Positions 12,401 to 53,100 of a DNA stretch of 64,000 nt are shown one piece after another. The notes beneath the pieces were generated by a model, which searched no databases, had not been told where the DNA came from, and saw only the letters and a list, made by a program, of their open reading frames with translations. Origin of the DNA: Takakia lepidozioides (lineage: Eukaryota > Plantae > Bryophyta); the NCBI GenBank assembly GCA_030704615.1, contig CM060733.1, positions 38,936,001 through 39,000,000 on the forward strand. Reading direction: 5' to 3'. Position numbers and translations under genes: made by a program. Within the stretch, counting starts at the first letter, position 1. Every line of letters starts with the position of its first letter.

Positions 12401-12799
12401 CTATAATATATAATCTTTTTATTTTAATCTTTCAGATCTGCTCTCTCCACCTGAACGGTCCAGATCGAACCTCGTGTTTTTCCTCCATCCATTGTCATCC
12501 GTCCAGAGATCCAGCCCGTAATCCATCCATCCATGGTTCCATCCGCTGATTTCATCCATTTTCATTCTTCCTCATAATTTTCATCCATTTGTAACTTTCA
12601 TCCATCCTGGAACATGACCAACTTAAGTTGGTACATGACCAACTTACATTGATACATTAGCCATTTTAAATCCTCATGAATGTTGCTCCTCATCCATGTC
12701 ATTAATCCATTTGGGAAGTGGGGATCGCTACCCTTGATCAACCAATATCCAACGGTTCACATTTATCCTTGTTTTCCCATTAGCTCCCTTTCCCGTGCT

Positions 12800-28124: not shown

Positions 28125-28492
28125 TGTCGTGCGCATACATATCGCTACACAACTACATCGCTGTCCAAACCACACCACACATATATGCACAATAAAGTAG
28201 TCTGCCACAATGATAAGAAAACTCAAAACACACTGTTCACACAAAATATGAAATTCATCAACATCACTCTTTAATATAATAGTCGAGCCAGGGGCACCCC
28301 AAGCTATGGGGACTCCACCCCACAACAACCTATACCCCTACATAAGCACACTCAGATTCTAAAGCATAAAGGAGCTCGGTCGCGCAGGCTCAACTCGAGA
28401 GAGATGAGCTGCGCGACTGCCGCTCTTGCGAAGATAAGACGGACCAGGTGTCAAACTAAACTTGACACCTGATTTAACACTTGACCTAAATC
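28125..28492 (-). repeat. 3' terminus (A+B) of a further copy of the DNMT-gypsy family, cut by the assembly gap
   Basis: Reverse complement of ~3710-4088. B = 28125-28210; A = 28211 up to the gap. Confidence 0.9.
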
Positions 28493-28992: not shown

Positions 28993-29790
28993 GCATTTCC
29001 GTTCTGGAATGTTGGTTGGTGCGACTCGGATGAAATACGGTGCCGCGGCATTTTTAGTTGCAAAAATGGTTCACGATTTTCAGTCAGAACGGAAATGCGT
29101 TGCCGCATTTCCGTTCTGGATAGTATGAATGTCTCAAGCGGGGTCGGCGGATTGCGCTTGTATGTGAAGCTGGTCGGAATCGCAACTCGGCTCCATGCAT
29201 CGATAAAAATGGAGAAATGCGGCGCCGCATTTCCGTTCTGGAATGTCGAAAAGTGCGACTTCGGACGGAAATGCGGTGCCGCATTTCTGTTCCCGTTGTT
29301 CATAATCTCAATCAGAACGGAAAATGCGGTACCGCATTTCCGTTCCACCTTCACCATACCGTGCTTGTTGAATGAAAATGCGGAATTCGTGTACGCATTC
29401 CGTTCTGGAGAGTACTGAATGTCTTTTAAGGACGGAAAATGTGCTGCAGCATTTCTATCCCTCAGCTCCATGCATCAGATACAAAATGGAAATGCGGCGC
29501 CGCTTTCCGTTCTGAAATGTCGGAAAAGTGCGACTGGACGGAAATGCGGTGCCGCATTTCTGTTCCCGTTGTTCATCAATTCTCAATCAGAACGGAAATG
29601 CGGTACCCGCCTTTCCGTTCCACCTCACATAACCAACCGTGCTGCTGGATGGATCGTTACCGCATTTTCGTTCTGGAGAGTATAAAGGTTTCCCCCGGAC
29701 GTAAACTCGGTGCCCGCATTTCCGTCGCTCTGGTGCATGACCCAGATGCAATACGGAAATGCGGCGCCGTATTTCCGTCCACCGGCAATC
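28993..29790. repeat. Array of imperfect palindromes (C)GGAAATGCGGCGCCGCATTTCC(G) upstream of the MULE-1 transposase
   Basis: About 12 variant copies at ~55-65-bp spacing (e.g. ~29214, 29266, 29538, 29755). Confidence 0.88.
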
Positions 29791-30034
29791 GAAAGAATCA
29801 ATCGGGACGGGAAATTTGGAACCTGAATGGGTTGCATTGTTCCGAAACAACACAATTGCGGCCAGTCTTGATGAGCACAACTGGTTGTCCTGACCGTTTT
29901 AACCAGCATTCCTGGCACTTGTCAGTGCGAACGTTCCTGTCTCACCGAGAATACTGCTGGATCCACCCTCAGGAGAAACTGTCAGGAGATGTTATTTCGT
30001 CGCCGAATCGGCCATCATTGTCATACTCACTGGC

Positions 30035-33000
30035 TATGGAATCAAACCTCCCACCTCATGCATGTAGCTTGAAAAACAATACTTTCCACTTCAATGTGCG
30101 ACTTCCAATCGTCGATGGACTCCGCATGGTGCCTGTGAGCCTTGGTCTGTCGCTATACTGAACCTCGCACTTGCCAACTCCGTGCGGTGTTCGATGGCTT
30201 CCGAATTCCTACGCTATAGTTTGCTGTCCTCCGCAACTGGGAGAGCCTGGATCCCAAACGAGGGAGGACTTTGCAGAGTGACTGAAACTTACCTTTGTTC
30301 CAAATTCAAGCTCAACCCGGCACAGTTTATTTGGAAGAAGAAAGGAAGGATGTTCCTGGACAGGTTGACGAGACCATTGTCGTGCTAGGTAACGACGGAG
30401 GTTGCGGAATCGAATGGCACGTTCCCCCGTCAGACACCATCCTGTACCGAGCTGTGGGAATGCCCATTCCCTTTCCGAATCAGTCGCTGCCCACACCTCC
30501 ACAAAGGAGTCGGAAACCGACAGGCGGCCACTGCCAACAGAGAGGTATGCAACGATAATCATTCCCCACCGACCTGGACCGTCAAGACCCTCCATAGCTT
30601 CTTGTGTGGACGTATTCGACATTTCCGACGAGGAAGATGATTGCATTGAGGTACCCATGTCCTCCACACGGTCGTTCAAAATCCGGCATTACGTCTCTGT
30701 AGGTGCTACGCATGTGCCCTCGAGCAAAACTCCAACCCGGTCCATTGTGCAGCTCCTACGACAACATCACCTCGATGGTTCTCGCTCCGAGCTGGCTGCT
30801 CTCGACTATGCCAAATTCCCAGTCAGAAAGGTAACGTTTCTGCCTCCCGAAGTCGATGGCAATGTCATCTTCGAGTTTCCACCTGTTTCTTCTTTGTCAA
30901 AGAAATCCTCCGGGATGTTAACAGACATGGATCGAAAGCATGACGGACACCCCTGGTGTGTGACGAAGACCAGTAGCACGAAAATTGCTGATGGTGTTCG
31001 TGTACGATATGTCCTCTGTGCGGGGAAGCTGAGGTGCCTCAATCCCACCTGCTTCCACTTTCTCTCCAAAGGAGGGCGGAGAAACGAGACGGATTGGACT
31101 GGCACAACGCATCATCCATTCATTGTCTCCAGCCAAGCTCTTGCGGGTTCTTTCAAGTGTGCACATTGCAAAGAACCACCGACGTGCATGTCCATGTGCA
31201 GAGCCAAGCAATACTACGTTATCCATTTGCTCCCGGACTTGACTAGAGCTTGCATACACGTTGGGGTCCACTGCCACCCCCTTGGCGAGAGGCAACATGC
31301 GTGAGGCTGTGCAGGAAGCACACGACATCATAAAAGAGGAGGTCAAATTGAGCCCCGGAGCCAGACCAAAGCAGATTCAGCTGAAGGCAGCCCACAAGAT
31401 TGCTCTTGGCAAAATCATGTCTGAAGATGGTTCCGACCGAGAGCCCTTGACCGAAGACGAGATGCGTGACCTCTTGGAGTCCGTCTCGCACGTTTGTAGT
31501 CCGAATGTGCGGAATCACATCGTATCTTGCAAGCAGGAGTTCGGCAGGGGGTCGGACATGTACTCAATCCTGGAGGTGAAACGAATGACTGGATATGACT
31601 ACATCCAAGGTAGCAGGTTTCCAGGGCAAGGCAGCGAATCCGATCGTTGTTACATTTTCAAAATGTCGACGTGTGGGCCTGGGAGTGGAGTCGACTTGGT
31701 CACTCGCATGACAACTGGAAACTTGTCGAATGCTTGGGTGATGTTTGATCACATCAAGCGAATTACAAACCATCAGTGTTGACTATGGGTGGCGCATGTT
31801 TTATGACTATCACTCCAAGAGGCTCATGACGATTGCAATCTGCGAGATGAAAGGGGAGGACACACAGTCCGAGATGCATCTGTGGGAGGGCATAAACCAG
31901 CAGATGGCAAGGGCGGGATTGCCAGAGCCCAATTTCAGGGGATTCATGGCAGACAACGCTCAGGCCAACTGGGCAGCGGTGCGGCGTGTGTACGGTGAGG
32001 ACCCTATGTTCCAATGGAGGGGAAAGAGAGATCCTGTGGATTCCATTGGATGCAGAGTCTATCCACTACACTACCAAGTTTGTTGCTAGCTCATTCCATC
32101 CAGCTGAACACCGTGTCCTTTGTACGGCGTGGAAGGATGCACCCACATTTGATGACGCGGAGGTTAAGTTTGCTATCATCGAGGCTTGGTGGAACACGTC
32201 AGGTGCAGTGGAGACAACCAATCTGGGAGCATTGCACAGCTGGTTGGGGTGGTGGCATTTTCGGTATCGACAGTTCGGACAGTACATGCGGGAGGTAGGC
32301 TGCTGTCAATTTCGTTCATTTGTCTTTCTGTTACGGACATTTCGATTGGTCCCTCACCATTGTTTGTGTCCTTCTAGGAGCGGTGCTTGGATTCCGACAC
32401 GGACATGCCGAACACGAATATGGCAGAATCGGTCCACTCCTCCTGGCGAGCGTCTTCTGCCGCACATCTGGTGGACGTAGTGACGGCCACAACGGAGGAC
32501 ATCGACAGAGCAATCATGCAGCAAGCCACGTACTACAAGTTCTTGAGCGGCAAACAATGGGGCTTTGGGCCGGACAGGGAGGAATTGTTGGTACGAACAG
32601 CTTCGAGGTCCAAGAATCCAGTGAAATGGGCGACAGCATTGCGAGAGAAGATCAAAGGGACGCCTCTGCACCGCAGAGGTGAACACCTAGAGGGGACGTC
32701 CGAACTCGCCCTGTCATGCGGAGGATTGAAGAGGACCCGGGTGCGAAGAGGATTCCTGGAGATCCGACAGGAACATTCGGACAGCACCTCGAGGTCCCGT
32801 CATGTTGCCGCACAATGTGTCCTTCCAGCAGTGGAAGCCCAAGAAATTCCAGATCGCCGTCGCCTCAACCGGGGATTTCATGCCACAAATTCCCACAGCT
32901 CCTTGCCCCACATTCCGCCCGTTGTTATGCAGTATGGCCAAGCCATTGTGGAGACGACTGTGTCTGCATCACAGTGGAGAATTGCTCGCACAAACCGTCG

Positions 33001-33798
33001 TTTCGAGGAAGGTGTTCCGCAATTCGTGTGGATACACGGCAACGTTGTTTAGAGATGATAAGGAGGAATCCAGATGGGGCTGTCCCTACTCCTCTTTTAC
33101 AGGAAGATTTGTCCATGCAAAGTTTGCGGAGGCGACAACCACCCAGTTCTGGTTCTGCAGGCACGACATTATGACTTGCGTGTATGGAAAGCCCAAGTAC
33201 GGCATACAACACTGCCAGAGGCTCCCCCGGTGTGGCCGGTGGAACCAGGCTGCGATCTGAGTCAGGTTGAGGCCGACGCCCTTACCGCCGCAGGATTTCG
33301 GATGGTGCAGCGCACTGACGTCCCCAGACAACCATTTTCCGCTTCCACAGCCTCCACCACCGACCCCTGTGAGAGCAAGAACATGGGACACGACAGCTCT
33401 AAGCATCCTACACACCGTTGGGGGAAACCGAAGAGGCGCGACCTCCCTCAAAAGTGAACGAGACGGATGGGGAATGCACTTCGGATGAACTGTACAATCC
33501 AGAGCTCGACAGAAGTGCCCCCACCAGGATCCGGGCGTGTGTATCAGATGGCCACGGCGGGCTCAGCTGTTCGCAATGAGGTGTACACCATCACCATTCA
33601 GAATTACCCACCTGCAATTGCAACCGACTTCCAGATCATGGCGAACAAGGGGCATCATACTGCCCTTGCAAGCATTTGTACTACGTGTACCTAAAGAGAC
33701 TCCGTTGTAATTCCACAACTCATCACTTCATACATGCACCAGGGTTGAGCCCCCAGGAGGTTCACACTCTTCTGAATATGGATCCAGGGGACCAGTGA
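30035..33798 (+). pseudogene. MULE transposase: GCM-like N-terminal Zn domain, DDE core, SWIM; frameshifted; one intron ~32296-32377
   Basis: WVMFD (D1), GFMADNAQAN (D2), CGFHW (MuDR CxxH), NMAESVH (E), and SWIM C-x-C-x-DF…CKHLY ~33610-33690. Confidence 0.88.
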
Positions 33799-35139
33799 GC
33801 TTGGCTTGCGGTCCACATACAATGGTACGCCCATCCTTTTCGGATAGTAAGAACTGTACTGCTGCCCAGTACCTCAGACTCTGGCCACACAAAGGTCCGA
33901 CATATGTCTTGCTACCAGTAACCTGTTTTTGATCGAACTAAGATATTACTATATCGTTCACGTTGTTTCCACGTGCATGTATTTTTTGTATGTTGGAGGG
34001 TTCATGTTTTTCTGCTTTCCGAAAACTTGCTCTCCTCATTCGACCTCCGACAAGGAAATGCGGCGCGAATCTCCAAGTATCGTCGTAGGTACCCCCAGAG
34101 GCGGCCTTCGCCAACACCAAACCGCTCCGAAATTTCGCACGTGCGAACCCTAAATGCGGCACCCTATTTCCCAGTTCAGTTGCAAACATTTCCCGCCGAA
34201 TACCCGAAGAAGACATAATTGTGAAGTACTGCAGACTGTATTGGTGCAGCAGACTCCATTGGTTCAATCGCGGCAAAAGGGTCAGCTTCATTCCAATGTT
34301 AAGGCATGTAAAACCGCGGAATACTCTATACAGGCCAGTATGCGACGTCCTTTTGCAGTGGTATACTGGATTTTCCCGTTGCACGGTCACTTATTTCCAT
34401 GAGCGGATCTATAAAACCATGAGCGGACTTATTACTGACGACATATCTTCGCCGCATTACATGATCTGGAACGTCCAAAAACGGCAAGGTCAAATAAAAA
34501 ACTATTATTTTAATACTTGTTTAATCTGCCGCATTTCCAAATTTGGAGGAGTCCGCTCATGAAATCCGCGTATCTTAGACTTTGGCTCACCGCTCATGCG
34601 GCTCATGGCTCATGGCTCATGGTTTCTGCTCATGAAATAGTAAACCTCCTCCCAAGTCCTTCAAACTGAAGGCAAAGCAATTCCTGTAAGCCCTCAGGAA
34701 CCGCCGTATACGTCGTCTCTCTCCTCCGTGACAATGGGTCCAATGTCAGGCTCCCAATTGTCCTCCGTAACTGCAACCTTAAGTCCAGTGGGCTTAGAGG
34801 TAGAGGACGTGTCCCGTGGTTGCTATGCTGCAACCTCTTGAGCAGTACTCCCTTCCTGCTCAGTCAATGACAAGGCCTCATCCTGCCCCATCATCTCATC
34901 ATTGAGAACCTCCTCAACCCGAGAAGAATCCCCAACCTCATCCATCACAACTGTCTTGGCTGCCAACTCTCTCTGGACCTCGAGCACCTCCCACGTGTGC
35001 CATGGATGTCTACACCCCGTGGTCCTCACCGGCTCGCCCCCACTCGCTGCCTGTACCGTCTCGGTAGGCAGAGAGACCATGAAGGGGAGTGCACTCCACA
35101 CTCTACGTTGCTCAGCCATAGCCAAGCTGATAATCCAGG

Positions 35140-36080
35140 TCAAGCAATTGAGATCCATTGCTTGCCCCAACACTTGACGCCGTGATGCCTCAGAAAGAGA
35201 AGGCACCGCCGTGGTCCCAGTGGAAAACCCCATAGCCCGCTCTCGCTCGTCGGCATTAGGCTCCACTAACTGCTGCAACTGAGCATCCCACAGGAGGCCA
35301 GGTCCACCATCCCGAAAAGCATGGGATCCTGGGAAGCTGAGCAGTGTAGGTAATGCTGCTCGTGGTTGACCCACCCTGTTGACCACTGCCAAAGGCGAAC
35401 GGTCATTGTGTCTCACACGTTGAGACTACCTCCCTGTGTCCAAAATGCCATCCACGGTGAGGTGTGCTGGCCGCTGCACCCCATCAAATGCACGCTTGAG
35501 TAGTGCGGGTGGCATCAAGTTAGTCCACCAAAGCCGTGGACGATGAGCCCGTGACCCCACTGCGGCTGCATCCAGCAACACTGCTGACCCAAGCCACGAC
35601 CGGACTTGATGTACACTGGCCATCACCCTGGCCCGAGAATCACCCATCAGTGGCACATTCTCCAAGATGTATGCTGGAGATACAGCTTGATGAAGTTGCA
35701 AGTAGCCCAAAATCCGCACCATCTCCCAAAACAGACCCGTCCTCGAGTCTCGCAATCCATTGCCATGCCCGGCTGATGAATGCCCTTGGCAGGGCCAACC
35801 TGCCACTACCAGATCAATGGAGCCAACCTGCTCCAAATCCTACGCCCCCAGCAAGGAAATGTTTGCTGGCAAGGCTTGTTGGTATCCACGAACTGCAGAC
35901 ACTGGCAACAAGTCAAGGTATTGTTGTACCAACTAAGCAATATGGCGCAATGAGACGCGTCGTGCAGTCTCATCCCTCTCCACATACAGGTAACGTCGAA
36001 CTCGTACACCTGCCTGCAGCACTGCAGCCAATCCAGTGCTGATCCCGCCAAACAAGTCCTGAAGGCATATGCCTTCATCC
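35140..36080 (-). pseudogene. C5-cytosine DNA methyltransferase domain (DNMT3-like motif spacing) within pol; in-frame stops
   Basis: Motif I DLFGGISTG, II LYVE, IV IDLVVAGWPCQG, VI YILENV, VIII HRPRLWWTN, IX ERERAMGF and X LGQAMD, all in one reading frame. Confidence 0.93.
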
Positions 36081-39000
36081 GGGCACTGCCACACAAGAGG
36101 TGTGGTGTCCAATGGCGACAACTGGGGTGGTTCTGGTGCAATCACCGCACTCTCCTCCTCTCCTGACGGTACGAAAGCTTCTACCCAAGCTTGTTGCCCC
36201 CGTCCATCAGCAGCCTGCTGCAAATCCTTGCTCGTACCCCACAATGGAGTGTGAGTAACCATGGCAGGCAACTCCGCCATACCATGCATGTCATCCTGCT
36301 CTGCTAGAGGTGGCACATCCTTTACGTGGGCATTGCCCTCCAGCAACTCTCCAGGCCAACTAACTGCAGCTGTAAAGGCGGCTAGTGTTGGCATCTTGCC
36401 CGCTGGGCAGCCGCTATACCCCCAATGAATGTCACAGGGAGCTGTGCACGGCGACCATCGCCTGACTGCCATCCAGGCCTATAGGATGCTGACTCCTCCC
36501 AAAAGTCCAGGGTGAAGCCCATAGGATATAACACTGCCCCACCAACGAGGACATCGTAAGAGATTGCGTCTGTCACAATGGCCTTGGCTTGCATCACTGA
36601 GCCATCTCTAGGATGATCCGGCTGTAGTCTAATGGCCAACTGATGCCGTGTCATGCCCCGAGCCTGCTCTGATCCTCCCAGAGATGTCTGTATCTGGAAA
36701 GGACAAGACTCCATATCCGCCTCCATAAGGCCCAAACCTGCAATAGCAGCTCTGCCCAACATCAGTGGCTGAGCTCCCGAGTCCAACAAGACCCGAAGTG
36801 GCCGGTACTTCTTGCCTGCCGGTCCACTCAAAGTGAAAATGCCTCCCTGGTTGTCTAACAAGACAACTCAAGGTGTCACCGTGGCGCGCTCAAAGGCTGG
36901 CCTAGCTGGCAGCTCTGTCAACCTGGCAGCTACAGCTTGCCATGGCGCAGCCGTGGCAGTCTTGACCCTCAAATCCGAGGATCCCTCTGCCACTACACCT
37001 TCCACTAACTCCGTAGAAGATGAAGTGACCTCCCCACTCTCACAGAGTGTTGCTGCTAGTCTGAACACTGCAGCTGGTCTCACCCCCGGCGTCGCAATCA
37101 TTGTTGCCGAGAACAGTGAGGCCTGACACACAGAGGTGGCTGCCCCCAATAACACACCGGATGCACTAGCCTTGGCAGCAGGAGTCAATGCTGCACGTGT
37201 AGCTCTCCCCAATGGCATAGTAACCTCCGCCTCGGTAACAGTCGGGCGAGAACTAGGTGCCATGGATGGCGTCGACACAGTCTCCGCCAATGTGAATGAC
37301 TGAGGAAGCCTCGCCTGACGGCTTGCCTCCCCACGCTGTGGATCCAATTCCACCTCTGCACCTCGTGGCTCAGGAACTCGTGATGCTCCTCGAGTCACGG
37401 CTGTAGCAGACTTCACCTGCTCTAGTTGTAGCGCTGCTCCGCACATGAATCCCATGCCTCCCATATCTCCTCTCTCAGGAGCAGGAGGTGGACCATCCCG
37501 CCTGGGAGCCGGTACCGCCTGAGCTATAGCCATGGCAGTGAGCCTCTGCTCTAGCTGCTGAAGCCGATTGGCCATGCCTTGGTCAACACCCTGACCTCCG
37601 TGTCCTTGGCCATGTGGAGCTTGCCCTTGGCCTGCACCTCGTGCCCGACCACCTCGTCCTCTTTGGGCTGGTCCACCTCGCCCCCGGCCACCATTGTTCC
37701 CTTGGAACTGGCCTGGGCGCAACTCAGGATGCAAGTCATAACACTGGGCATCTCCATGCCCATACTTGCCACAATGCCCACACTGCAACTGTGCAGGTTG
37801 TGCTTGTGCCGGCCTTTTGCCACTCTCTGGGCAATCTCTCTTGACATGGGGTCCTCCACATGTCCAACATATCACCCCTGGTTGCTGTTGGCCTGCAAAA
37901 GATGCCACGGGCCTCTGTACCTGAGGTCCCTTGTAAGCTCCATGGAACTTGGGCTGGGCAACCTTGCCCCCCTGACCACGCTGTTGGGCAGTCCCTTGTG
38001 CCTGTGGGCTGACAACTGTGCCCCGTGCAGGCATGTCCTTGCCAAATCCAATTGTAATAACTCGCTCCTCCACCATGTTGAGCTCAATCCGCTCAGCCAG
38101 CAGAAACACATCTGCTAATGTGGGTTGGGCTGCTTGTAACAGGGTTGCATCTCGCACCCTTCTCTTGAGCTCCTTGTCCAGAATTCCATACCAAAACTAG
38201 ATTGCCTGAGCTTCAGTAACCCCTTGGGTCACACTTATCAAGCGCCTCATACGAGTGTACGCCTCTCGCAGGCTCTCACTGGGTTTGCGCTGGAAGTCTT
38301 GCAAACTTCGCAGCTTCTCTGTCCGTATACCTTGGTAGTTCCTCCGCAACTCCTGGAAGAACTCCACCACCGGGTTGAATCTAGGCACATGTGTTGTAGT
38401 CGTGGCAGGAGGAGTAGTAGCACCTTTTGAACTGGTACCACCTGCAGAAGTACCAGCACTACTTGCTCCACTACTAGTGCTGACAGTGGGAGCTATTGGT
38501 ACTGATGCAGCTACTGGTCGCGTCGTGCCTCGAGTAATGGAGACGTAGTCAGGTGACCAATACATCCTCCACTCCTCAATCTCTGCTTCATGTCCTCGCA
38601 TGAACTCGTGGTAGTCGTCCATAGGCGGGCCTTCCAAATGCTGGAACAGTCCCTTCCACGCCATGAATGGGGTGAATAGCTGTGGATTGCGCATCTGCTG
38701 CAAATCACACCAGCTGTCAAACTCTTGGATAAAGTCATCCAACTCGATTGTGCCCACAGCTCTAGAGTACCTACGAGGCCCCTTGGTAGCTCCATACATC
38801 TCCTCCATGTCGTCCCACAACAATGGCGAATGAAAGTGCACACCTGTTGATGAAGCCTCCAAGTCTGTGTCTGACTCTACAGTAATTGAGGGTGGCGGTG
38901 AAGGTGGACTGAACCGAATACCTCGTCTTGTGAACCCACTCTCACTGTTACTGCCTGTAGCCGTACTCCCCTCAAAACCCTTGGGTAACTCCGTAATGAC

Positions 39001-39578
39001 ACTCACAATGTGCACCTCCTCCACGTGACACTATAAGGCTCTAGTACTAATCTTATAGTGACACGGGTAGGCACCTGTTGTAGTCTAAGGGTCATATCCC
39101 AATGGCTCAGGGCACCTGCACCTGCATCCACCGCAAGAACTCCTATGGTTGGCTGGTCATCAACCCAACCTCACCATAGAAGAAACACTGGTGGTCTTGC
39201 TGGTCATCACTCTAGCCTCACCACCGACAGCATACTCTAGGATTGACCGGTGATCAAATCTGACCTAATCCCTATGAAAGCAAGCGCCCACACAAAACCA
39301 ACATGACGCACAGTCAAGCATGCAGGTGTTGGGGGGATCCAAACACAAGAAATCAAAACATCAACACCCCCACACCAAAATCCAGCTGCAATGCTGATCC
39401 TGCAGAATATCCCAGCCCAAAACCCCGGACTGACTGGCCTCCACAAAGAGAGCCTTTGGCAACTACGAGTACAAGGTAATGAAAATAGTACAGAGATGGA
39501 GGGGAAGAATAAAAGCCCGCCCAAGCAAGATCTAATCCTGATCTATGCTATCAACTTCCAGACTTCTCTCAAAGTGCC

Positions 39579-40190
39579 TCACTCTACTTGATGGTAAGGT
39601 GTAGGAGGTATATCTATGTCCAGAAACCTGCCACTAACCTTGTCCCAAGCTACAGTAGCTTGCTCTAACCAACCCTCCTCCTCTTTCTGCCAGGTAGAGA
39701 CAAAGCAACACTCTGCTATCTCCCGCTCACTGAACACTAAAGAAAACAAAGGTAGGGTCTGATAGTCTCTCAACTCGAAAGCTTTGAGACCGTTGCGGGT
39801 GTCCTCATTGCGAATGATTGCATCTCCTTCAAACAGAACAAACTTGTCCTCGCTAATGAACCCCCGCTCGTGGTTGCCTTGTGCAGAGCGTGTCCGGCTG
39901 CAACGCTGTCTGATTGCACAAACTTGTGTAGCTCCTGCTCCTCTACTCCAGTACACCACGGCCTTGTGGCTGAACACCTTGGTCCCCGGGGCTGTCTTTG
40001 GCTGTGTTCCAAGCCTAGCTTTCACCCACTTTGGTATTTCACCTACAGCTGCAGAACTGCTGGCTCCAACAGAGTTCTGACTGTCCAAAGCGCTATTGAG
40101 GCCCTCAACGCCAACTACAGCAGACTGTTGTCTACTGCTAATGCCTGACTCCCAGTATGCAATCAACTCGTCTAACTGTTCTCCACTCAA
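39579..40190 (-). CDS. Uncharacterised ~203-aa extra ORF upstream of gag
   Basis: Open ORF on the element's sense strand between the LTR and gag; no motif recognised. Confidence 0.45.
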   Translation of the reverse strand: MSGEQLDELIAYWESGISSRQQSAVVGVEGLNSALDSQNSVGASSSAAVGEIPKWVKARLGTQPKTAPGTKVFSHKAVVYWSRGAGATQVCAIRQRCSRTRSAQGNHERGFISEDKFVLFEGDAIIRNEDTRNGLKAFELRDYQTLPLFSLVFSEREIAECCFVSTWQKEEEGWLEQATVAWDKVSGRFLDIDIPPTPYHQVE

Positions 40191-40729
40191 ATCAGTCTGA
40201 GTTTAGGGAAAAAACATCATCTTCTCCCCTTGTGTGCACAGGCTAAGAGATGAGACCTGCCCTTCAATTACGTCCTCATTTCCCCCAGCCATACAAGGAG
40301 TACATCCCCAGATTTATCTCTCATGTAGACCAGAACAGGTTCTAGAAACAGGATTGTGGATCTTTCATGGCACACTCACACTCTAAAAATTCCATAGATT
40401 TTTAGCAGAGTCCCAAAAACAAAAACCAGGTCTAGATAGGTAGATATCCCTTCTGCAGCTATCCCCCCAAAAACTGAGTCAAACGGAGCCCATTTGACAA
40501 AGATATGACCAACCAGGCTCTTTAAACATAACACATTTTATTTTATTTATTTATTTTTTAAATAAGACAACAAATACAAAGAAAACTTTTTTAAAATAAA
40601 AATAAAAATACTTGTCTTGGTTCCTGTTCCCTGGTTATCTACAGGTTCCCAAACATGTTCATGTAGTTCTCACAGTCTGGATTCACCCCTCCTCTCGTTC
40701 TGTGCTCTTATGCTGTGGCAGTGCGTGGG

Positions 40730-40915
40730 ATGTGAAGGTCGGTGATGCGGGTCTTGGCCTTTCTGTCAAGGAGAACCTGAGAAGGCTTCAGATCAGTACA
40801 CCCTGTGCTCCGGGCACTCAGGATGCAGGTACGCCAACGCGCGTTTGTTACACCGATGGCAACGTTGAGTCGATCCCTTCAGCTCATATCCCGCTCATAC
40901 ACCAAGTGTCACCTG
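40730..40915 (-). pseudogene. Receptor-like kinase domain fragment
   Basis: TLVYE…DRLNVAIGV…LAYLHPEC…DLKPSQVLLDRKAKTRITD, read across frameshifts (RLK subdomains V-VII). Confidence 0.65.
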
Positions 40916-41183
40916 GTGAATTCACAGTCTCCCACTCTCATGCTTTCCTGCAACAAACACGACCTTGAGGTTCAATCCTCCAAAACCTGAGGATCGCCAG
41001 CCTGTGAGGTTGACACTGTCAGAAAGCGCCCCTCCCTTCCAGCAAATGGCCTAAGATCTGGTGACCTCGTCAATCCTCCCCTGGACTGCTCTTGCTTGGC
41101 CTTTCTCACAGCTGCCTGCACCTGTCACTGTGTTTCTGCCTGACATTTGACTACCCTCCCAAGAATGTAGAAGTCCCTGCGGC

Positions 41184-41513
41184 AGTCAGGCTTTGCCCTG
41201 GTGTCACCTTCACCTCCCCACCTTTCTTCATGGCTTCAATCACCTCTTTAAACTGCTCGTAGTTATGGACAGCCCCAACAGGCTGAATGTGGTTAGTAAT
41301 GGGGGGTGTTTTCTGGGTAGTGTGATGCTCAAGGTCTTGCTTTGGGGAGCCTTGACTATTGATCGGGTTGCTGGTGCGGTCGTGACGGAATTCCGCCTGG
41401 GAGGTGGACGTGGGCTGACCGTTGCATGTGGCTGTCGAAGAAAAGGAATTGGTCCGTGAGAAGCCTTGGAAGAAGCCGGTCTTACTTGCTGCACCAATAC
41501 AAGTATTGCCCAT
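41184..41513 (-). pseudogene. Calcium-dependent protein kinase (CDPK) N-terminal fragment
   Basis: MGNTCIG acylation-type start and …EQFKEVIEAMKKG…PGQSLT, breaking off just before the kinase domain. Confidence 0.7.
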
Positions 41514-42621
41514 TTAATGTCCTCTCTTTTCCATCTCTCCCCACCTTAGCTCCCGGAAGAACTGTCCCCCAGTCTGTATGTCTTCTCTCCTTCTGTGCGT
41601 TAGCCTACACGGTTTTTTACGCACGGGGAAGCAACCAACTGCACACTGCAGACTCTTTAAGAGAGAACGGACTAACAGGCAAAAAACTCAAGCCCGTGAC
41701 GTTCTTCCTAGAGAAGCGACCCTGCCACCCATTCGCCAACACCAGGTCTTCTGCAAAGTAGCATAAGGACGGACACTAGATGCCACAACAACTGTACTCA
41801 GCATTGGGCATGAGTTCCGCCTTCAGCAACACGGAGACTCTTATCTCTCCAGCGTACTCCAATACCATCGCTCCGACATCCACAGCCACTGCCTTTGCGC
41901 AGTCAAACACGGAAATTTCCCTCTACAAAACCTGCTCATCAGTGCATCTTCTCACGCTTCCCCGTCGTACACACGCCCCGGTCACACAAGAGAGGCTTCG
42001 CAGGAGCTTCCTCCCGTCCGCCATCTCACTTGCGTGGTATGAACAAGACAACTGGTGCTGGCTGGTCTACAGTCTATTTCCTAAGTAGACACTGCTCATC
42101 CACACATGCCTGCTCGGGCACACCCTGCAAGACTTCGGAGCGAATCCCCTCGCGCAACAGTTCGGGATTTGACTAACACGTCGGTGCAGCAACAGCCGCC
42201 TGGCACCTTCAGTTATCAGAGGATTGCGACATAGCCTGTTGTGTAAACCGAGCACACAACCCAGTTGACTAGCATCTCAACCCCAGCCTTTCCCTCTCAG
42301 TGGAGCCTCCCTGACAAATGGGAGCACATGACGCGGTTACAGAGTTCGTCTCCATGCGCGCAGGCTGCAGTGTGAAGAAGCTTGAAAGTGGCAGGCAGCC
42401 ATGGCCGAGCTGCTGCCGTGCTTCAACCACTCTACCTATACCCCCCGAGTCCCACCATTGCGACTGAGGATGTGAGACGAACTCCAGCTAGCGCCGTTCT
42501 ATGCTCATTGCTTGAGCTGTGTACAAGACCATGACCATCTATATTATAATAGTGCTTAAAAAAACAAAAACATCATATCTAGCTTAGCACTGAAAACTAG
42601 ATAGAGCTCATCTCTCTCGAG

Positions 42622-42972
42622 TGATAAGAAAACCAAAGAACACACTGTTGACACAAAACATGAAAACCAAAACCATCACTCTTTGAAATAGTAGTCGAGC
42701 CAGGGGCACCCCAAGCTATGGGGACTCCACCCCACAACAACCTACACTCCCATCATGAGTACACTCAGATCTAAACGCATGCAGGAGCTCGGTCGCGCAG
42801 GCTCAACTCGAGAGAGATGAGCTACGCGACTGCCGCTCTCGTGAAGATAAGGCCGTTCAGGTGTCAAACTAAACTTGATACCTGATTTAACACTTGACCT
42901 AAATCCAAGTGTTAAATACAAATAACTAGCTTTATTCTAGTTCTTTTCACACTGTGCTTATTTAACTTGACA
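42622..42972 (-). repeat. 5' LTR (repeat A1) of the DNMT-gypsy
   Basis: TGTCAAG…TTATCA, homologous to 3645-3997. It interrupts the MULE-2 transposase after PNVPMEG. Confidence 0.88.
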
Positions 42973-44990
42973 CCTTCCATGGGAACATTGGGGTCTTGCC
43001 CGTACACCCTTCGGATGGCAGCCCAATTTGCTTGTGCGTTGTCCGCCATGAAACCACGGAAATTCGGAGGGGGCAATCCCGCCTTGGCCATCTGTTCGTT
43101 TATTCCCTGCCAAAGAAGCATCTCCGATTGTGTGTCCTCTCCTTTCATCTCACAAATAGCAATTGTCATTAGCATCCTGCAGTGGGTGTCGTAGACATGT
43201 GCACCCATTGTCACCCACTGGTGATTTGTAATTCGCTTGATATGGTCGAACATGACCCAACTGTTTGACAAGTCCCCACTCGTCATCCTGTCGACCAGTT
43301 CGACGCCGCTGCCAGGTCCACACGTGGACATTTTGAATACGAAACAACGATCTGCCTCAGTCCCTTGTCCTGGAAACCTACTTCCATGAATGTAGTCATA
43401 TCCACATCGTCGCTTCACCTCTAGAATGGAGTGCATATCCGAGCCACGCCCAATTTTCTGTTTGCATGAGACAATGTGGTTTCGGACATTCGGTGAACAT
43501 ACGTGGGACACCCACTCCAGCAATGCCTCCATTTCCTTCTCGTCGAGAGGAACTCTATCGGAGCCGTCTTCCGACATAATTCTGGCCAATGCCATCTTAT
43601 GGGCGGCTTGGAGCTGTATCTGTTTGGGTTTGGCACCCGGTCTCAACTTAACCTCCTCCTGAACGAGCTGCTCTGCTTCGTGGGCAGCCTCCCGCGAGTT
43701 CCCTCTCGCCAATTTGTGACAATGGGAACCAACGTGTATGCAAGCTCGGGTGAGGTCAGGGAAACGGTGCAACACATAGAACTGCTTGGCATTACAAACA
43801 GACATGCAGTGTGGTGGTTCTTTGCAATGCGCACACTTAAATGTGGAGTTCGGAACCTTCTCCTGAGCTCGAAATGGTTGATGAGCTGTGCCTATCCAAT
43901 CGGTCTCGTTCCTGTGACCCATGGATTTAAAGTGGAAGCAGGTTGGGGAGAAACACCGCAACGCGCCCGCACAAACAACGTAGCGCACCCGCACACCATT
44001 GAGCATCTTCATGTTGGTGGTTTTGGTAACGCACCAAGGATGACCGTCATGTTTTCTATCCATATCTGTCAACATTCCGGACGCCCTCGAGTAGTCCGCC
44101 CGAGGAGGGAACTCAAAGAAGATATTACCGTCGACGTCGGCGGGAAGGCATGTAACCGATTTAATTGCGAACTTGTTGTAGTCCAGCCCGGCCAGCTCCG
44201 ACCGGTGTCCCTCCAGGTGAAGCCCTCGCATAATTTCAAGAATAGATCGAACTGCGGTGCTCATGCTGGGAATATGACTCCCTCCTCCACTGACGTCCAT
44301 TGAGGACTTGCCTGATTTCTAGGATGACCTCGGAACTTCCATGACCTCGTCTGAGTCGGACAGGTTGTGAACAACCCGGTTCTCGCTCGTCTTCATGGAT
44401 GGGTTCGGCTCTGGATTTACTTCGTTGCGGACTTCTCTCTTTGAGGTAGCCACTCTCTGATTCGCGGATTGTTTCGTGGAAGGCGCCAGGATAGAAGGTG
44501 CATTTGGCGGGCAAATGAAGTCCCCAACAGCCCTGTATATGACGTTGTCCGATGGTGGAACTCGCCATTCCCTGCCATCGCCGAAATCATCGTGGAGCAC
44601 AACAATACTCTCGACAACAAGGCCGTTTGAGTCCTTCCTTTCCTCCTCCAAAAAAACTGACCCCGGTTTCAGGTGGTATCGAACGCACATATATTTCTCC
44701 ATCACCCGGCAGATGTCCCCTCTGCACGGAAATGAAGCTCTATGCTCGTGAGGAGGGCAGTACACTGTAGCGCTCGGGTTTTCCACCATGGGAGATGTGC
44801 ACACAAGACTGCCAGGATGGCGTGCGGGGAAGCTCCCTGGTAGAAGGGGGATGCAGCGATGGGAAGGAATGTGGTGCCGATTTGTCCGAGCGACAAAGCC
44901 TGATCCAAATCCAAGGAACCAACTATCTCAAAAATCCACAGTCAGAGTGTTAATGAACCTTGTCTCCGGAATGCGGCTCCTGGTCTTTGC
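42973..44990 (-). pseudogene. MULE transposase N-terminal half (GCM-like domain, D1, D2), truncated by LTR insertion
   Basis: 462-aa and 161-aa ORFs in the same frame, strongly similar to MULE-1 (MDRKHDGHPWCVTKT, WVMFDHIKRITNHQ, GFMADNAQANWAA). Confidence 0.9.
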
Positions 44991-45034: not shown

Positions 45035-46270
45035 CGGATGATGACGGCTGAAGGGGAGAAGCCGGCACCGTGCCGTCACATTACTACCCCCGAATGGAAA
45101 TTCGGCACCCAATATCCAAAAGGGGCCACACGGATGAAGTCGTCTGGGGCAGAGATGCCGGCACCTGTCCGACAGAGAACATCCCCCGGACGGAAATTCA
45201 GCGTCGAATTTCCATTCGGATCCCCCCAAAGGAAGTCCTGTCGGGGGGTCAGGCCGAAAACTGGCCGACATAAGAACCTACGGGGATGGAAAAACGGCGC
45301 CGAATTTCCATCCGAGGCCTTTCGGATGCAGTCGGCTCGGGGGAAAGGCCGCCATCTGGCCCTCACATTACAACCCCCGGACGGAAATTCGGCACCGAAT
45401 ATACAACAGGGGAAGCCCGGATGAAGTCGCCTCGGGCGCAGAGGCCGGCACGTGTGCGACTGATAACATCCCCTAGATGGAGATTCGGCGCCGAATTTCC
45501 ATCCGGGCCCCCCCAAAGGAAGTCGTGTCGGGGGGTCAGATGGAAAAACGGCGCCGAATTTCAATCCGGGGCCGTTCCAATGCAGTCGGGGAGGGGGGAG
45601 AGGCCGGCACCTGGCCGTCATATTTCAACCCCCGGACGGAAATTCGGCACCGAATATCCAACAGAGCGGCGGAGAGGCCGGCACCTCTCCGACAGAGACC
45701 ATCCCCCGGATGGAAATTCGGCGCCGAATTTCCATCGGGGCCCCCTCAAAGGAAGTCGTAAAAACCTACCCAGATGGAAAAACGGCGCCAAATTTCCATC
45801 CGGGGCCGTTCCAATGCAGTCGGGGAGGGGGGAGAGGCCGGCACCTGGCCGTCATATTTCAACCCCCGGATGGAAATTCGGCACCGAATATCCAACAGAG
45901 CGGCGGAGAGGCCGGCACCTCTCCGACAGAGACCATCCCCCGGATGGAAATTCGGCGCCGAATTTCCATCGGGGCCCCCTCAAAGGAAGTCGTAAAAACC
46001 TCCCCAGATGGAAAAACGGCGCCGAATTTCCATCCGAGGCCGTTCCAATGCAGTCGGGGAGGGGGGAGAGGCCGGCACCTGGCCGTCATATTTCAACCCC
46101 CGGACGGAATTTCGGCACCGAATATCCAACAGAGCGGCGGAGAGGCCGGCACCTCTCCGACAGAGACCATCCCCCGGATGGAAATTCGGCGCCGAATTTC
46201 CATCAGGGCCCCCTCAAAGGAAGTCGCAGAAACCTCCCAGAATGGAAAAACGGCGCCGAATTTGCGTCCG
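45035..46270. repeat. Tandem array: three near-identical 234-bp units (starting 45542, 45776, 46010) plus degenerate upstream units, each with three palindrome variants
   Basis: ggaaaaacggcgcc recurs at 45542, 45776, 46010 and 46244. Confidence 0.93.
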
Positions 46271-46384
46271 AGGCTGTTCCGATTTGCCTCTAGCAGTGAA
46301 GGATTCCAAGAAAAATCTGAAAAATCAATCGAACACGCTCAGAATTACCTGCAGGAAGGTAATTCAGCGCTTCGAAATTCCTAG

Positions 46385-46990
46385 CGAATGGAAATCCGGC
46401 GCCGAATTTCCATCCATCCGGGACTCCACTTACCTGCTGGATGGAAATTCGTCGCCGGATTTCCATCCATCCAGGACTCCACTTACCTGCTGGATGGAAA
46501 TTCGGCGCCGGATTTCCATCCATCCGGGATTCCACTTACCTGCTGGATGGAAATTCGGTGCCGGATCTCCATCCATCGACTCTCCGCCCAACCTTGCGGA
46601 TGGAAATCCGGCGCCGGATTTCCATCCATCCGCCTCCGAATTACCTGCTTGAGGGAAATTTTGCGCGCCGCCCTACCTGCGCGGATGGAAATCCGGCGCC
46701 GGATTTCCATCCATCCGCTTCTGAATTACCTGCGTGAGAGAAATTTGGCGCGCCGCCCTACCTGCGCGGATGGAAATCCGGCGCCGGATTTCCATCCATC
46801 CGCTTCCGAATTACCTGCGTGAGGGAAATTTCGCGCGCCGCCCTACCTTGCAGGATGGAAATTCGGCGCAGAATTTCCATCCTGCTGCGCTCCGAATTAC
46901 CTGCAGGATGGAAATCCGGCGCCGGATTTCCATCCTGCAGCGCTCCGAATTACCTCTACGTTGGAAATTCCGGGCCTCTTTCCGTCGATT
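46385..46990. repeat. Array of ~30-bp palindromes GGATGGAAATCCGGCGCCGGATTTCCATCC (52- and 85-bp periods)
   Basis: Perfect copies at ~46598, 46683 and 46768. Bases 46901-46940 form a perfect 40-bp palindrome. Confidence 0.93.
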
Positions 46991-50100: not shown

Positions 50101-53100
50101 TGACATGGTGGTTTCAGGTACTTCCCCACGCTTCGTTTGGGGTTTCTACTCTAGTAGGGGGTGGATTCATTGTATTTTTTCAGGAAAGCGATCTGATGGA
50201 GAATCTCCACATGTGACAACGAATGCGCAACAGCAGCTGGACACACAAGCACATCAGTTCAAGATGGAGATATTTCCTGCAGCAGAGAGCCTACGTGACT
50301 ATGTGACGAGGTACTTTCTGCTCTACAAAACCAACCTATTCTTTCGGGAGATAGCAGATGCTCGCCGGAGCCACGAGTTCACCGACCAGCCGAACGCGGA
50401 CAAAGCAGCAATGCGCCTTCTGTACAGGTACATACGCGCGGCCTTTCTTTCAAGTCCTTGCATTTCAGGATGTTAGAGGCCTCATGTGGTGTTAGGGAAA
50501 ATGGCGCCGAATTTCCAGTCAGGGCTCCGAAAATGGCTAAGTCCCTAGACTGGCTGGCCTTGAACTGGAAATTCGGCGCCATTTTCCAGTTCTAGGCCCT
50601 ATTGCCGTTCAGGGACTTGGCCATTTTCGGACTAAATCCCTAGACTGGCTGGCCCGGAATTGGAAATTCGGCGCCATTTTCCAGTTGTAGGCCCTATTGC
50701 CGTTCAGGGACTTCGCCATTTTCGGGCTAAGTCCCTAGGGTGGCTGGCCCCGAACTGGAAATTCGGCGCCATTTTCCAGTTCTAGGCCCTATTGCCATTC
50801 AGGGACTTAGCCATTTTCGGGCTAAGTCCCTAGGGTGGCTGGCCCGGAACTGGAAATTCGGCGCCATTTTCCAGTTCTAGGCCCTATTGCCGTTCAGGGA
50901 CAGCCATTTTCGGGCTAAGTCCCTAGGGTGGCTGGCCCGGAACTGGAAATTCGGCGCCATTTTCCAGTTCTAGGCCCTATTGCCGTTCAGGGACTTAGCC
51001 ATTTTCGGGCTAAGTCCCTAGGGTGGCTGGCCCGGAACTGGAAATTCGGCGCCATATTCCAGTTCTAGGCCCTATTGCCGTTCAAGGACTTAGCCATTTT
51101 CGGGCTAAGTCCCTAGGGTGGCTGGCCCTGAACTGGAAATTCGGCGCCATATTCCAGTTGTAGGCCCTATTGCCGTTCAGGGACTTAGCCATTTTCGGGC
51201 TAAGTCCCTAGGGTGGCTGGCCCTGAACTGGAAATTCGGCGCCATTTTCCAGTTGTAGGCCCTATTGCCGTTCAGGGACTTAGCCATCTTCGGGCCAAAC
51301 CGGGAAAAATGGCGCCGAATTTCCAGTTCAGGGCTCCCAAGATGGCTAAGTCCCTAGGGTGGCAGTCACCGAAAACCTCGATTCGGCGCCATTTTTCCAT
51401 TTCTTGGCCCACTCGCATCCGCCCCAACCTGGGAAAATGGTGCCGAATATGCATTTCAAGGATCTCATTGTGTTTTTCATGAATGCAGGTACTGCAAGTT
51501 CTCCCTTTTGGAGAAATGTCATCTGTCTTTCGAGCCACCATTCTTCCTGGCATGGAGGAACCCTGGGGCTGACTCCATGTACACTGACGATATTGTGAAG
51601 GAGTGGCATCTGCAACATTTGCGTGATTGCCCTTGGTATGTGGACCTTCCGCCCGGCTCGTTCGACCCATCCGAGTTTCAATTGAAGCTGGATGCTGAAT
51701 TCCGACGAAACCGGGCTCCGCTGCCTCCGTTGGGTGCAAAAGAGGCAAAAGCGCTTGCGAACTCCAGGAAAGCGGTAGAGCTTGCTCAGGCAGGAATTCA
51801 GGAGAAATTGCATGAGAAGAGTAAAGGCCAAAGGAAAAGGACAAGGAAACAGGTGAGTGCAGTAACACCCAAAAAGAAGAAAACCATCGGGGCATCTGCG
51901 TAGGAGGGGACCCAAGAGAGTGACTCGGACAACGACTTTGTTCAAGGTCCTGCGACTGCTCTTGCTCCTACCCAGTCACCGGTCGTCCGGGTTCCCAAGT
52001 CAGTTCGGAGTGGGACTGGCTCTGCCAAGAAGTTGGCATTTGAGGGCGAGCCTACACGGCGGTATTCGGCGGTGACGTTTACGCACAGGCCAAAGCTAAA
52101 CCTCCAACCATCATCCAATGCGTCAATGAGAGCTTCCTTGACGCTCTCGCTGCCAGGGCGAAGAAGGTGGCACACAACAAGTCTCTGGCGGAGCAGAAGG
52201 GGAAAGCCAAGAAGAGGGCTGGCGGTACAGAGCCTAAATACACCCCTGGTTTTGAAGCCATGATGGAATTCTTCACGGCTGTGAGCACGAATTGCAAGAG
52301 CACTCGGGGGGGGGGTTGAGGTGGAGAGAGCTTGCGACATGATTCTCCTCGACATTCCAGATGGGGAGCTGCTGGAGGGCCTGGATGGTGTGCCTACCTG
52401 GAACAGGTTTACTGAGGACTACTGGAAAGCCGGGTTTGGGCTGGCAGGGATGCTTCTGGATGACGGTGGATGTGTGGTTGTCCTTGCCACGAGAGGGAAG
52501 ACCACAGAGAATGCGGTGGCAAGGTGGACACCGAAAAGTGTCACCCCGGTCCTCCTCAGAAAATGGTTCTGCATCAGTACACAGGGGTTGCGAACAGAGG
52601 GCCAAAGTGTAAGTTATCAATCTATTGCATTCACTTCATATTGTGGTGTATGTTAAGTAGACCCTGGAGTTGATCCCTTCTTTGTTGGATGTGCAGACAT
52701 TGGTGTTTGAGGCATATTGCTTTGTGAAGAGAGGGTCTACGTTCAAATTCCACAACGACGGTCGTCTTGTTGATGCCGCTGTGGACCCTGTAACCTACGA
52801 TGTCCTCTACAACTATGTGCCCCACTCCAGTATGCCGAAGGACACAAAGACAGGCAAACCGTGGCGGTACAGCCGGACCCGGAGCCCAGCTTTCATCCAA
52901 ACCCTCATGGAGACGTGCTCGGATGTCCAAGGGCGGATTCTGGACTAAGCCTTCACGTGATCAGTTTGTCCCCTGGCCCGATTGCAATTGTATGCCGCAA
53001 GCTATTAACCGTCCGCTTTGTTCCTCAGGTGCTTCAATGTGGGCAGGGACGTTGTCCGACAGGCATGTGTTCGCCTTCGAGCCAGATACTGCCCTCCACA

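Follow-up and report, generated by a model that had tools for sequence, protein, structure and literature searches.

Organization of the element copies

The window, which is the whole 64-kb stretch of Takakia lepidozioides DNA analysed, contains parts of three copies of a retrotransposon family, located at 42972-34649 on the minus strand (copy 2), at 1-4088 on the plus strand (copy 1) and at 28492-28125 on the minus strand. This agrees with an earlier note on this DNA, which counted at least three copies or termini. No complete element is present within the window.

Copy 2 (all coordinates on the minus strand) carries a gag-protease-DNMT stretch at 39030-34649, with all C5 motifs and a predicted DNMT3-like fold, as judged by profile and structure comparison. 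The copy starts with the 5' repeat A1 (42623-42972), which begins with TG, is 85% identical to repeat A2 of copy 1 and is preceded by AAGG, within another repeat element. A predicted self-priming primer-binding site (PBS) follows at 42605-42622, its 18 nt being complementary to 42806-42823 within A1, compared with a maximum of 10 nt in shuffled sequences. The leader between A1 and gag (39031-42604) is 3.6 kb long, against 1.2 kb in relatives, and may contain an insertion; the 207-aa frame at 39582-40202 matches no Pfam family and has atlas scores under 0.8.

Gag begins at 38808 and includes a capsid region (38065-38808; PF03732, E 0.002) and two CCHC zinc knuckles (37741-37869; at 37869 and 37782). 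The aspartic protease (36439-36867, with LLDSGA at 36789) and the DNMT3-like C5 cytosine methyltransferase (35123-36073) lie in different frames with a break near 36400, unlike P0003 and most relatives, in which this region is a single frame. A conserved stop with its context, TAG CAA CCA (34817-34825), fits CARYYA and is the predicted readthrough site at the end of ORF1. The RT-side ORF starts directly after it (34649-34816) and is cut by another repeat at 34649. Copy 2 is dead: it has five decay stops, two in gag-protease (38199 in the capsid region and 36870 at the protease) and three in the DNMT (35935, 35842 and 35428), in addition to the frame break and the cut at 34649.

Copy 1 is heavily decayed. 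Its positions 1-3293 comprise the DNMT-RT linker, RT (from 391), RNase H (1250-1646), integrase (2025-2665) and a PHD finger (3081-3293). Window positions 1-327 align with 34988-34651 of copy 2 at 90% over 339 columns, so that the colinearity claimed for positions 1-330 is real and leads on to RT, RNase H, integrase and, beyond these, PHD. A conserved PPT-like purine tract (3540-3556, ending in AGGGGG) lies directly 5' of a split 3' end (3557-4088), made of B1 up to 3643 (ending in CA), a 1-bp spacer, A2 from 3645 (starting with TG) and B2 up to 4088 (ending in CA). The third terminus (28125-28492, minus strand), part of A2 with B2, adjoins an N gap. It is a separate insertion, since its flank CCTC differs from the AAGG of copy 2.

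The methyltransferase domain

The core motifs reported earlier downstream of the protease were all located between 36058 and 35170 on the minus strand: I (DLFGG, 36058), II (35989), IV (GWPCQ, 35800), VI (ILENV, 35668), VIII (HRPRLWW, 35545), IX (ERERAMGF, 35248) and X (LGQAMD, 35170). The domain matches PF00145 with an E-value of 1e-11 (45 bits, cut-off 22), and the solved structures closest to it by sequence are DNMT3A/3B (E 9e-9). The predicted model (pLDDT 95) is most similar in fold to DNMT3B (Z 28.8, rmsd 2.7, 277 aligned) and DNMT3A (27.4), with lower scores for M.HhaI (22.2), ZMET2 (18.1) and MET1 (17.8). The motifs run in order from I to X, not permuted as in DRM, and a CMT-type chromodomain insert is absent. 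The closest class thus appears to be DNMT3, a placement by sequence and fold and not by tree grouping, as the DNMT trees took in no host DNMT3. Phage DNMTs resemble the element DNMT as well (E 1e-16, atlas score 0.96). Within the domain, Pfam detected neither a PWWP nor an ADD nor any other chromatin reader.

Across 48 aligned DNMT sequences, down to 35% identity, the catalytic Cys and Glu are invariant, and the motif VIII arginines are at least 90% conserved. In motif X, GQAM stands in place of the GRSW of DNMT3A. Pairwise counts, as opposed to a codon-model omega, give a DNMT dN/dS of 0.10-0.18 between families: 0.12 for L025/L028 (at dS 0.26), 0.10-0.12 for these two against L043, and 0.10 for the window against L005, where dS is saturated. 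Among close decayed copies the ratio is 0.57-0.69. The comparison across copies proposed in the earlier note thus indicates purifying selection on the DNMT of the family. The element enzyme is predicted to methylate DNA.

A conserved stop between DNMT and RT

The locus had been read as a Ty3/gypsy polyprotein with a DNMT between protease and RT. The placement was confirmed, the DNMT end being followed by RT within 700 bp in 59 of 80 related loci (about four families, with repeat assemblies of the same insertions included); the fear that other copies might lack the DNMT was unfounded. The single open polyprotein, however, does not exist. An in-frame TAG-CAR stop separates DNMT and RT at 34825 in copy 2, and 39 of the 40 relatives that are in frame here have it at the corresponding position. 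The DNMT frame does run into the pre-RT sequence, as had been stated, but with this stop intervening. The comparison identifies the stop as a family feature and not as decay. Because it separates DNMT and RT, the DNMT is part of the ORF on the Gag side.

A frame-free search found a stop followed by CAR in 51 of 73 loci (17 were without anchor, and five fell outside the class, four through wrong-frame anchors and one through a changed context), compared with 24 of 833 decay stops. Every family has CAR 3' of the stop. The window, L006, L025, L028 and L043 conform fully to CARYYA; in the largest sampled family the sequence is CAACCC. The reading frame is kept across the stop; in L025, 1369 open codons are followed by one stop and 1047 further open codons, with the first Met at +117, inside RT. 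Positions 34817-34825 showed no variant reaching 5% among family copies from four runs, although with 25 variable places in 221 these nine unchanged bases are not significant by themselves. In Marchantia, four ORF1 proteins terminate 97 residues past motif X, an observation on protein ends and not on DNA. The single-ORF relatives P0033, P0034 and P0097 fall outside the stop clade in both the DNMT and the RT trees. RNA structure 3' of the stop gave no consistent signal in eight sequences, with z from +0.15 (window) to -3.0. CAR YYA is the TMV readthrough signal and works in plants, according to the available sections of PMC2754532. RT, RNase H, integrase and PHD are therefore likely to be made only by occasional readthrough of the stop.

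Distribution and inheritance of the family

Relatives that are 60-73% identical occur in Marchantia, Calypogeia, Riccia and Sphagnum. Wider relatives were found in liverworts, mosses and Closterium, together with a chlorophyte form in which the DNMT lies between RNase H and integrase; in this type it adjoins integrase-PHD in 75 of the 82 proteins with RT, RH and IN. On this comparison, the family of copy 2 is old and is shared with liverworts and peat mosses. No relatives of P0034 were detected in the viral contigs searched.

The same main groups appear in the DNMT tree and the RT tree (Mantel rho 0.57, 0/999 permutations, 63 rows), which shows, at the level of sequence, that the DNMT is a family trait co-inherited with RT. 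For the DNMT tree, 314 domains were reduced to 198 by redundancy and then to 93 by removal of fragments without a class and of 61 of 107 RH-DNMT-IN rows. In the RT tree, the row for the window spans frameshifts, and its branch is long. Clades were read rather than counts of the automatic "stop" and "one ORF" labels, which are noisy owing to contig-edge fragments and spliced gene models.

Copy 2 is cut short and has an N gap nearby, as would be expected of a one-off capture of a host DNMT or an assembly chimera. This explanation is practically ruled out by the 80 related loci, the named liverwort and moss proteins, 253 clusters matched at E<1e-30, and contigs that bridge the junction. Past 34649, contigs in four of four runs continue into the sequence that leads to RT in copy 1, and a single contig bridges the DNMT end to beyond the cut; the concern that the sequence upstream of window position 1 might contain no DNMT was thereby removed.

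Element ends

The ends are split repeats, with A at the 5' end and B-NN-A-B at the 3' end. TG...CA ends and a 4-bp target duplication were found at all seven loci with both ends (six insertions). The A2|B2 joint joins the PBS boundary to the PPT boundary; it is exact in six cases, and two joints carry extra bases (L038/L040 and L068), one of them beginning with PBS sequence. A DDE (rve) integrase is present, and no tyrosine recombinase was found in the family. Short A...B forms had been considered as proof of 1-LTR circle insertion. This was dropped: L052 and L070 share a flank and differ in form, so the short forms come from collapse or recombination. The split ends, the 4-bp duplications and the self-priming site fit integration from a cut circle, and we infer such circles from them.

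Comparison with known elements

The closest known element, compared by its published description, is KnitGypsy-Dnmt3 of Klebsormidium nitens (PMC5890265). As far as the available sections of that paper go, both are gypsy elements whose DNMT3-like domain is intronless and unpermuted, and both combine a DIRS-like repeat layout with gypsy domains and show purifying selection (<0.2 in the alga). The layout matches this published type rather than a separate land-plant capture. However, the algal DNMT is described in one ORF with RT and RNase H, whereas the bryophyte family has a conserved stop in between, and the algal element was reported from one alga, in contrast to the wide distribution described above. 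It did not methylate yeast DNA, a result its authors call inconclusive. SymbioDIRS-Dnmt3, which methylates CG de novo in yeast (same source), shares a retroelement DNMT3 and split direct repeats, but DIRS elements use a tyrosine recombinase. Membership in DIRS/PAT was rejected for the present family in view of its rve integrase and 4-bp duplications. Troyka, also considered in view of the odd repeats of the present family (for Troyka: CG...CG ends, 3-bp duplication, animals only, as far as described in PMC12440569), was rejected on the TG...CA ends and the 4-bp duplication.

The family resembles Ty3/gypsy in the order PR-RT-RH-IN, the DDE integrase, the TG...CA ends, the 4-bp duplication and the PPT; the closest solved relative of L043 is Ty3 Gag-Pol (E 8e-102). 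It differs in lacking two identical flanking LTRs, with split ends and an internal CA-NN-TG junction instead, in having a PHD and no chromodomain match at the integrase C-terminus, and in placing protease and DNMT with Gag, ahead of the recoding site. Tf1-type self-priming likewise uses a primer site complementary to the 5' repeat, and in the copia element SIRE1 readthrough occurs between pol and env. The in-frame UAG followed by CAR YYA recalls the TMV type (PMC2754532, in part) as well as SIRE1, but here the predicted readthrough would divide Gag-PR-DNMT from RT, and one large family has CAACCC. The foamy virus DDE integrase cleaves a palindromic 2-LTR circle junction (available sections of PMC1180852), as proposed here for the internal junction, whereas in the present family the junction forms part of the repeat itself and every cycle would depend on it. 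Gypsy-7a_cRei and REM1 of Chlamydomonas are green-lineage gypsy elements with a PHD finger, the former with an LTR drawn in subparts; their domains as listed in the available sections of PMC9940879 do not include a DNMT, in a comparison by description and not by sequence.

No description of this family in land plants, of the stop or of the circle route was found in the literature searched; supplements, Repbase and subscription papers lay outside the search and may bear on novelty. The available parts of 10.64898/2026.05.21.726589 and PMC12344493 speak of streptophytes and do not mention land plants by name.

Proposed mechanism and alternatives

In the best joint reading, to which we give an even chance, a Gag-protease-DNMT3 ORF1 ends at the TAG-CAR stop, the RT side is made by occasional readthrough, and an abundant, particle-packaged DNMT methylates the cDNA before insertion. 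The DNMT would be produced at the Gag level, in bulk with the particle protein, and readthrough would leave many DNMT molecules per RT or integrase. The protease would release the DNMT within the particle. Self-primed reverse transcription would give the cDNA a B-NN-A at each end; these ends would then be joined, and integrase would open the internal CA-NN-TG junction. Methylation at the end-joined stage would let the copy arrive pre-marked like host heterochromatin, to which the PHD finger likely steers it. A broader version, which is rather doubtful, extends to a superfamily throughout the green lineage, including Marchantia, that would pack an active DNMT3 at a readthrough-set dose and pass through an obligatory end-joined circle, opened at the CA-NN-TG palindrome and protected or licensed by methylation.

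The bulk-made DNMT might instead enter the nucleus and methylate integrated copies or the insertion site rather than cDNA, which would restrain the element itself or influence where it lands. Gag-level expression would far exceed the enzyme need of one cDNA, self-limitation is raised in the discussion of PMC5890265 (available in part), and in chlorophyte-type relatives the neighbouring integrase-PHD would carry the DNMT to its target. The missing chromatin reader and the stop, which separates DNMT from PHD in most products, make this rather unlikely. The domain might also be kept because it binds DNA or serves as a decoy, shielding cDNA or competing with host DNMT3, rather than to transfer methyl groups. 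This would explain the lack of observed activity of the Klebsormidium relative in yeast (same source) and the difference in motif X, but hardly the invariant Cys and Glu and the whole fold kept, and is quite improbable.

It is also unlikely that the stop is a true termination, with RT-RH-IN-PHD translated from a spliced or internally started mRNA and the DNMT still made with Gag. TAG fits a YAG splice acceptor, and gene models P0007 and P0038 of Marchantia and Sphagnum splice around the region. TAA variants at the site (8 changes, 11 rows) had been considered as an active-subfamily marker and rejected, as they do not cluster on the tree; they are scattered decay and hence compatible with an acceptor. 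The gag stop of Tca2 is bypassed without flanking signals (PMC2194720, available in part). On the other hand, a pyrimidine tract is absent 5' of TAG in the window, L006, L025, L028 and L043, and the kept frame, the CAR context of all families and the late first Met of L025 argue for readthrough. A less remote alternative, still doubtful, is that the split ends are copied from RNA as in DIRS/PAT, or arise when linear cDNA is cut and rejoined, without a closed 2-LTR circle. The six exact joints favour it, end joining usually being less exact, and the short A...B forms need no circle. The fusion of PBS and PPT boundaries, the extra bases at two joints, the DDE integrase with its 4-bp duplications and the failure to find a tyrosine recombinase speak for the circle.

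Significance for bryophyte biology

Why a transposon carries its own silencing-type enzyme has been an open question since 2018, in part because the hosts were hard to handle and the algal gypsy enzyme produced no signal in yeast. The Marchantia annotation lists open Gag-protease-DNMT frames, among them Mp4g09160, as hypothetical proteins; a tractable plant is therefore at hand for tests of enzyme activity and its sequence context, of readthrough and of circle formation, with the conserved stop predicting the dose and place of the enzyme. Bryophyte DNMT gene counts and methylome studies may need to allow for element copies. If a superfamily with a packaged, active DNMT3 does exist, bryophyte cells would harbour in it an abundant, hidden supply of de novo methyltransferase.

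Structure of the Retroelement and Its Methyltransferase

The minus strand of copy 2 (42972-34649) encodes, from 38808 onwards, Gag, two CCHC knuckles, a protease and a C5 methyltransferase (DNMT). The position of the DNMT downstream of the protease, proposed in the earlier note, is borne out: motifs I, II, IV, VI, VIII, IX and X follow each other in the normal order, and Pfam PF00145 matches at an E of 1e-11. In its list of 30 sequence matches among solved structures, DNMT3A/B/C take the first 29 places. A structure model based on a 48-sequence alignment (pLDDT 95) predicts a fold close to DNMT3B (Z 28.8, rmsd 2.7, 277 aligned) and DNMT3A (Z 27.4), with lower scores for M.MpeI (25.3), M.HhaI (22.2), ZMET2 (18.1) and MET1 (17.8).

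Copy 2 is a dead element, because of two stops in gag-protease, three in the DNMT, a frame break near 36400 between protease and DNMT and the cut by another repeat at 34649. The pre-RT sequence is colinear with the window start, as had been noted: 34988-34651 is 90% identical to 1-327, beyond which copy 1 (1-4088, plus strand) continues into RT, RNase H, integrase and PHD, all decayed. The copy 2 leader (39031-42604, minus strand) measures about 3.6-3.8 kb, compared with 1.2 kb in relatives, and contains a 207-aa frame (39582-40202) without a family match. Between 34810 and 39168, 25 of the 32 well-supported differences between copy 2 and other copies are of the C-to-T type, 12 in CHG, 10 in CHH and 3 in CG context (available C: 528, 1583 and 322); the places form a non-random subset, and the pattern hints at host CHG methylation.

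Two related decayed elements (28993-34648, plus strand, and 42973-44220, minus strand; 72% identity over 1264 bp), carrying subterminal repeats, surround copy 2; one cuts it at 34649 and it sits inside the other. A third piece of this kind is likely at 62377-63780. Near 33600-33690, the pair shows a SWIM-like CxC...CxH motif, without a Pfam match. Elsewhere, the window contains an intron-bearing B-type cyclin gene (about 56400-58400, plus strand), whose nearest named match is Ceratodon purpureus (86-88% over 58 residues, one short conserved region), making a moss the likely host, and a 416-aa frame (19590-20840, minus strand) that resembles by eye the C-terminal part of LINE ORF2, without a Pfam match. 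Two long frames on opposite strands at 9897-12549 are likely remains of other retroelements; CCHC-like knuckles in one of them match PF14787 weakly (E 0.006). Tandem arrays occupy 45053-46976 (unit about 234 bp), 50440-51402 (about 53 and 85 bp), 8682-8853 (about 95 bp) and 15026-15546 (about 10 and 110 bp).

A Conserved Stop between DNMT and RT

The single polyprotein running from DNMT into RT, as envisaged in the earlier note, is interrupted by a TAG at 34825 (minus strand). This stop first appeared to be decay. Compared across loci it is a family feature, since DNMT and RT share a frame in 40 loci and 39 of these have a stop at the homologous place; the sole exception, L078, is scrambled there. 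A frame-free search of 73 loci found a stop followed by CAR in 51 and a sense codon at the site in none (the other 22: 17 without anchor, four anchored in the wrong frame, one with changed context). After decay stops inside domains, CAR follows in only 24 of 833 cases. The window and L006 read TAG CAACCA at this place, L025/L028 read TAG CAGTTA and L043 reads TAG CAATCA; these three contexts all fit CARYYA. The large Sphagnum-like family carries CAACCC after TAG or TAA. UAG followed by CAR YYA is described as the TMV readthrough signal, working in plant reporters (PMC2754532).

In L025, 1369 open codons, a single stop and 1047 further open codons follow each other, the first Met of the latter being located inside RT. 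In Marchantia, ORF1 proteins (about 1280 residues) terminate at the matching place, as judged from protein ends only. Family copies in four sequencing runs show no variants at or above 5% at 34817-34825, which is weak alone, as 25 of 221 places vary. Readthrough accounts best for these sequences; splicing into the TAG may produce pol instead. With readthrough or splicing alike, the reading frames place the DNMT on the Gag side. In this the family differs from the gypsy elements described in 2018, in which, according to their authors, the DNMT shares an ORF with RT and RNase H (PMC5890265).

Distribution and History of the Family

Annotated relatives (60-73% identity) occur in Marchantia polymorpha (many loci), M. 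paleacea, Calypogeia, Riccia and several Sphagnum species; Closterium and Scenedesmus carry less similar ones. Among the matches listed, most of them without a name, there are no fern, lycophyte or seed-plant names. At E<1e-30, 253 clusters are related. Two members of this plant and algal family, P0070 and P0317, are filed under bacterial MAG records, likely through binning contamination.

A one-off capture of the DNMT, considered in the earlier note, is at odds with the other copies: the DNMT end is followed by RT within 700 bp in 59 of 80 metagenome loci (the best 80 of 168, many being repeat assemblies of the same insertions). The other refuting case, a sequence upstream of window position 1 that lacks the DNMT, failed too: loose contig ends at 34649 carry on as in copy 1 in four of four runs, and one 2173-base contig spans 35197-34649 and extends past the cut. 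On this sequence evidence, the DNMT is a family trait. In one run with window DNA, 45,788 small contigs were placed on a 4.9 kb element stretch, which points to many copies, though not to a copy number.

Among stored proteins with RT, RNase H (RH) and integrase (IN), the order RT-RH-DNMT-IN is found in 75 and DNMT-RT-RH-IN in seven (cluster members). RH-DNMT-IN rows form one group in both the DNMT and the RT tree (support 99); a second group in both joins the window with named bryophytes and stop-bearing loci (97 with 28 rows; 96 with 11 rows). The trees contain no host DNMT3, and the RT one is unrooted. Between pairs of rows, DNMT distance correlates with RT distance (rho 0.57, 0 of 999 permutations). 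Since tree groups agree and distances correlate, the data would fit a single old acquisition, long co-inheritance with RT and one move of the domain. The dN/dS check suggested earlier gave 0.10-0.18 for the DNMT between families, 0.12 for one unsaturated pair and 0.57-0.69 among close decayed copies, values to be expected there under prevailing neutral decay. The domain may derive from a host DNMT3 or from a DNMT3-like enzyme of phages; phage enzymes match the DNMT at E down to 1e-16.

P0104 and related proteins form a large sister group with a named Scenedesmus member; here a single ORF carries the same DNMT after RNase H and before integrase. No published account of Gypsy-DNMT3 in chlorophytes, or in land plants, was found in the open literature searched; supplements or Repbase may have them.

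Split Ends and a Proposed Replication Route

Sequence comparison places repeat A1 at the start of copy 2 (42972, minus strand), and copy 1 ends in the order B1, A2, B2. In relatives, seven loci (six insertions) include both ends, and every one of them is bounded by TG...CA and flanked by a 4-bp duplication. The B1-A2 gap is 2 bp in eight of eight loci; copy 1, which is rich in indels, has 1 bp. B precedes the upstream A start in 0 of 20. A purine tract adjoins B1 upstream in both families.

Directly 3' of A1, an 18-nt stretch is complementary to mid-A1 (shuffles reach at most 10). At this position the sequence differs in the Sphagnum-like family and is again complementary to A1 (19 loci: 17 nt in three, 10-11 nt in nine, at most 8 in seven). 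Tf1 primes its own reverse transcription, and the stretch fits a predicted self-priming site of this kind. With this site and the purine-tract site, ordinary reverse transcription would leave B-NN-A at both ends; joining of the ends and opening of the junction beside the PBS would give the inserted A...B-NN-A-B form. At the A2|B2 joint the PBS boundary meets the PPT boundary; the fusion is exact in six cases, and L068 and L038/L040 carry additional bases. We infer insertion from an end-joined (circle) intermediate; cleavage of circle junctions is described for foamy virus integrase (PMC1180852). The short A...B form (10 loci, nine insertions) was dropped as evidence for this route, L052 and L070 having the same flank and different forms. 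A figure legend of the KnitGypsy-Dnmt3 paper mentions a DIRS-like layout (PMC5890265). The stop, self-priming and circle route of this family have no account in the open literature searched.

Proposed Role of the DNMT

The window element is real and a variant of the gypsy element with DNMT3 already known from Klebsormidium; two later papers use the word "streptophytes" (10.64898/2026.05.21.726589; PMC12344493). A DNMT acting on chromosomes is an unlikely alternative role, and a non-catalytic one is still less probable. The latter would agree with the lack of observed activity in yeast of the related Klebsormidium enzyme, reported alike for human DNMT3B; SymbioDIRS-Dnmt3 is described as methylating CG there (PMC5890265).

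The sequences show the anatomy, the stop, the conservation, the selection on the DNMT and the ends. Methylation of the element's own cDNA, to which we give an even chance, would proceed as follows. The element RNA would start in A1, and most ribosomes would terminate after the DNMT, a minority reading through into RT, RNase H, integrase and PHD. The protease would free the DNMT inside the particle, where it would methylate the cDNA, and integrase would insert this cDNA from the joined intermediate.
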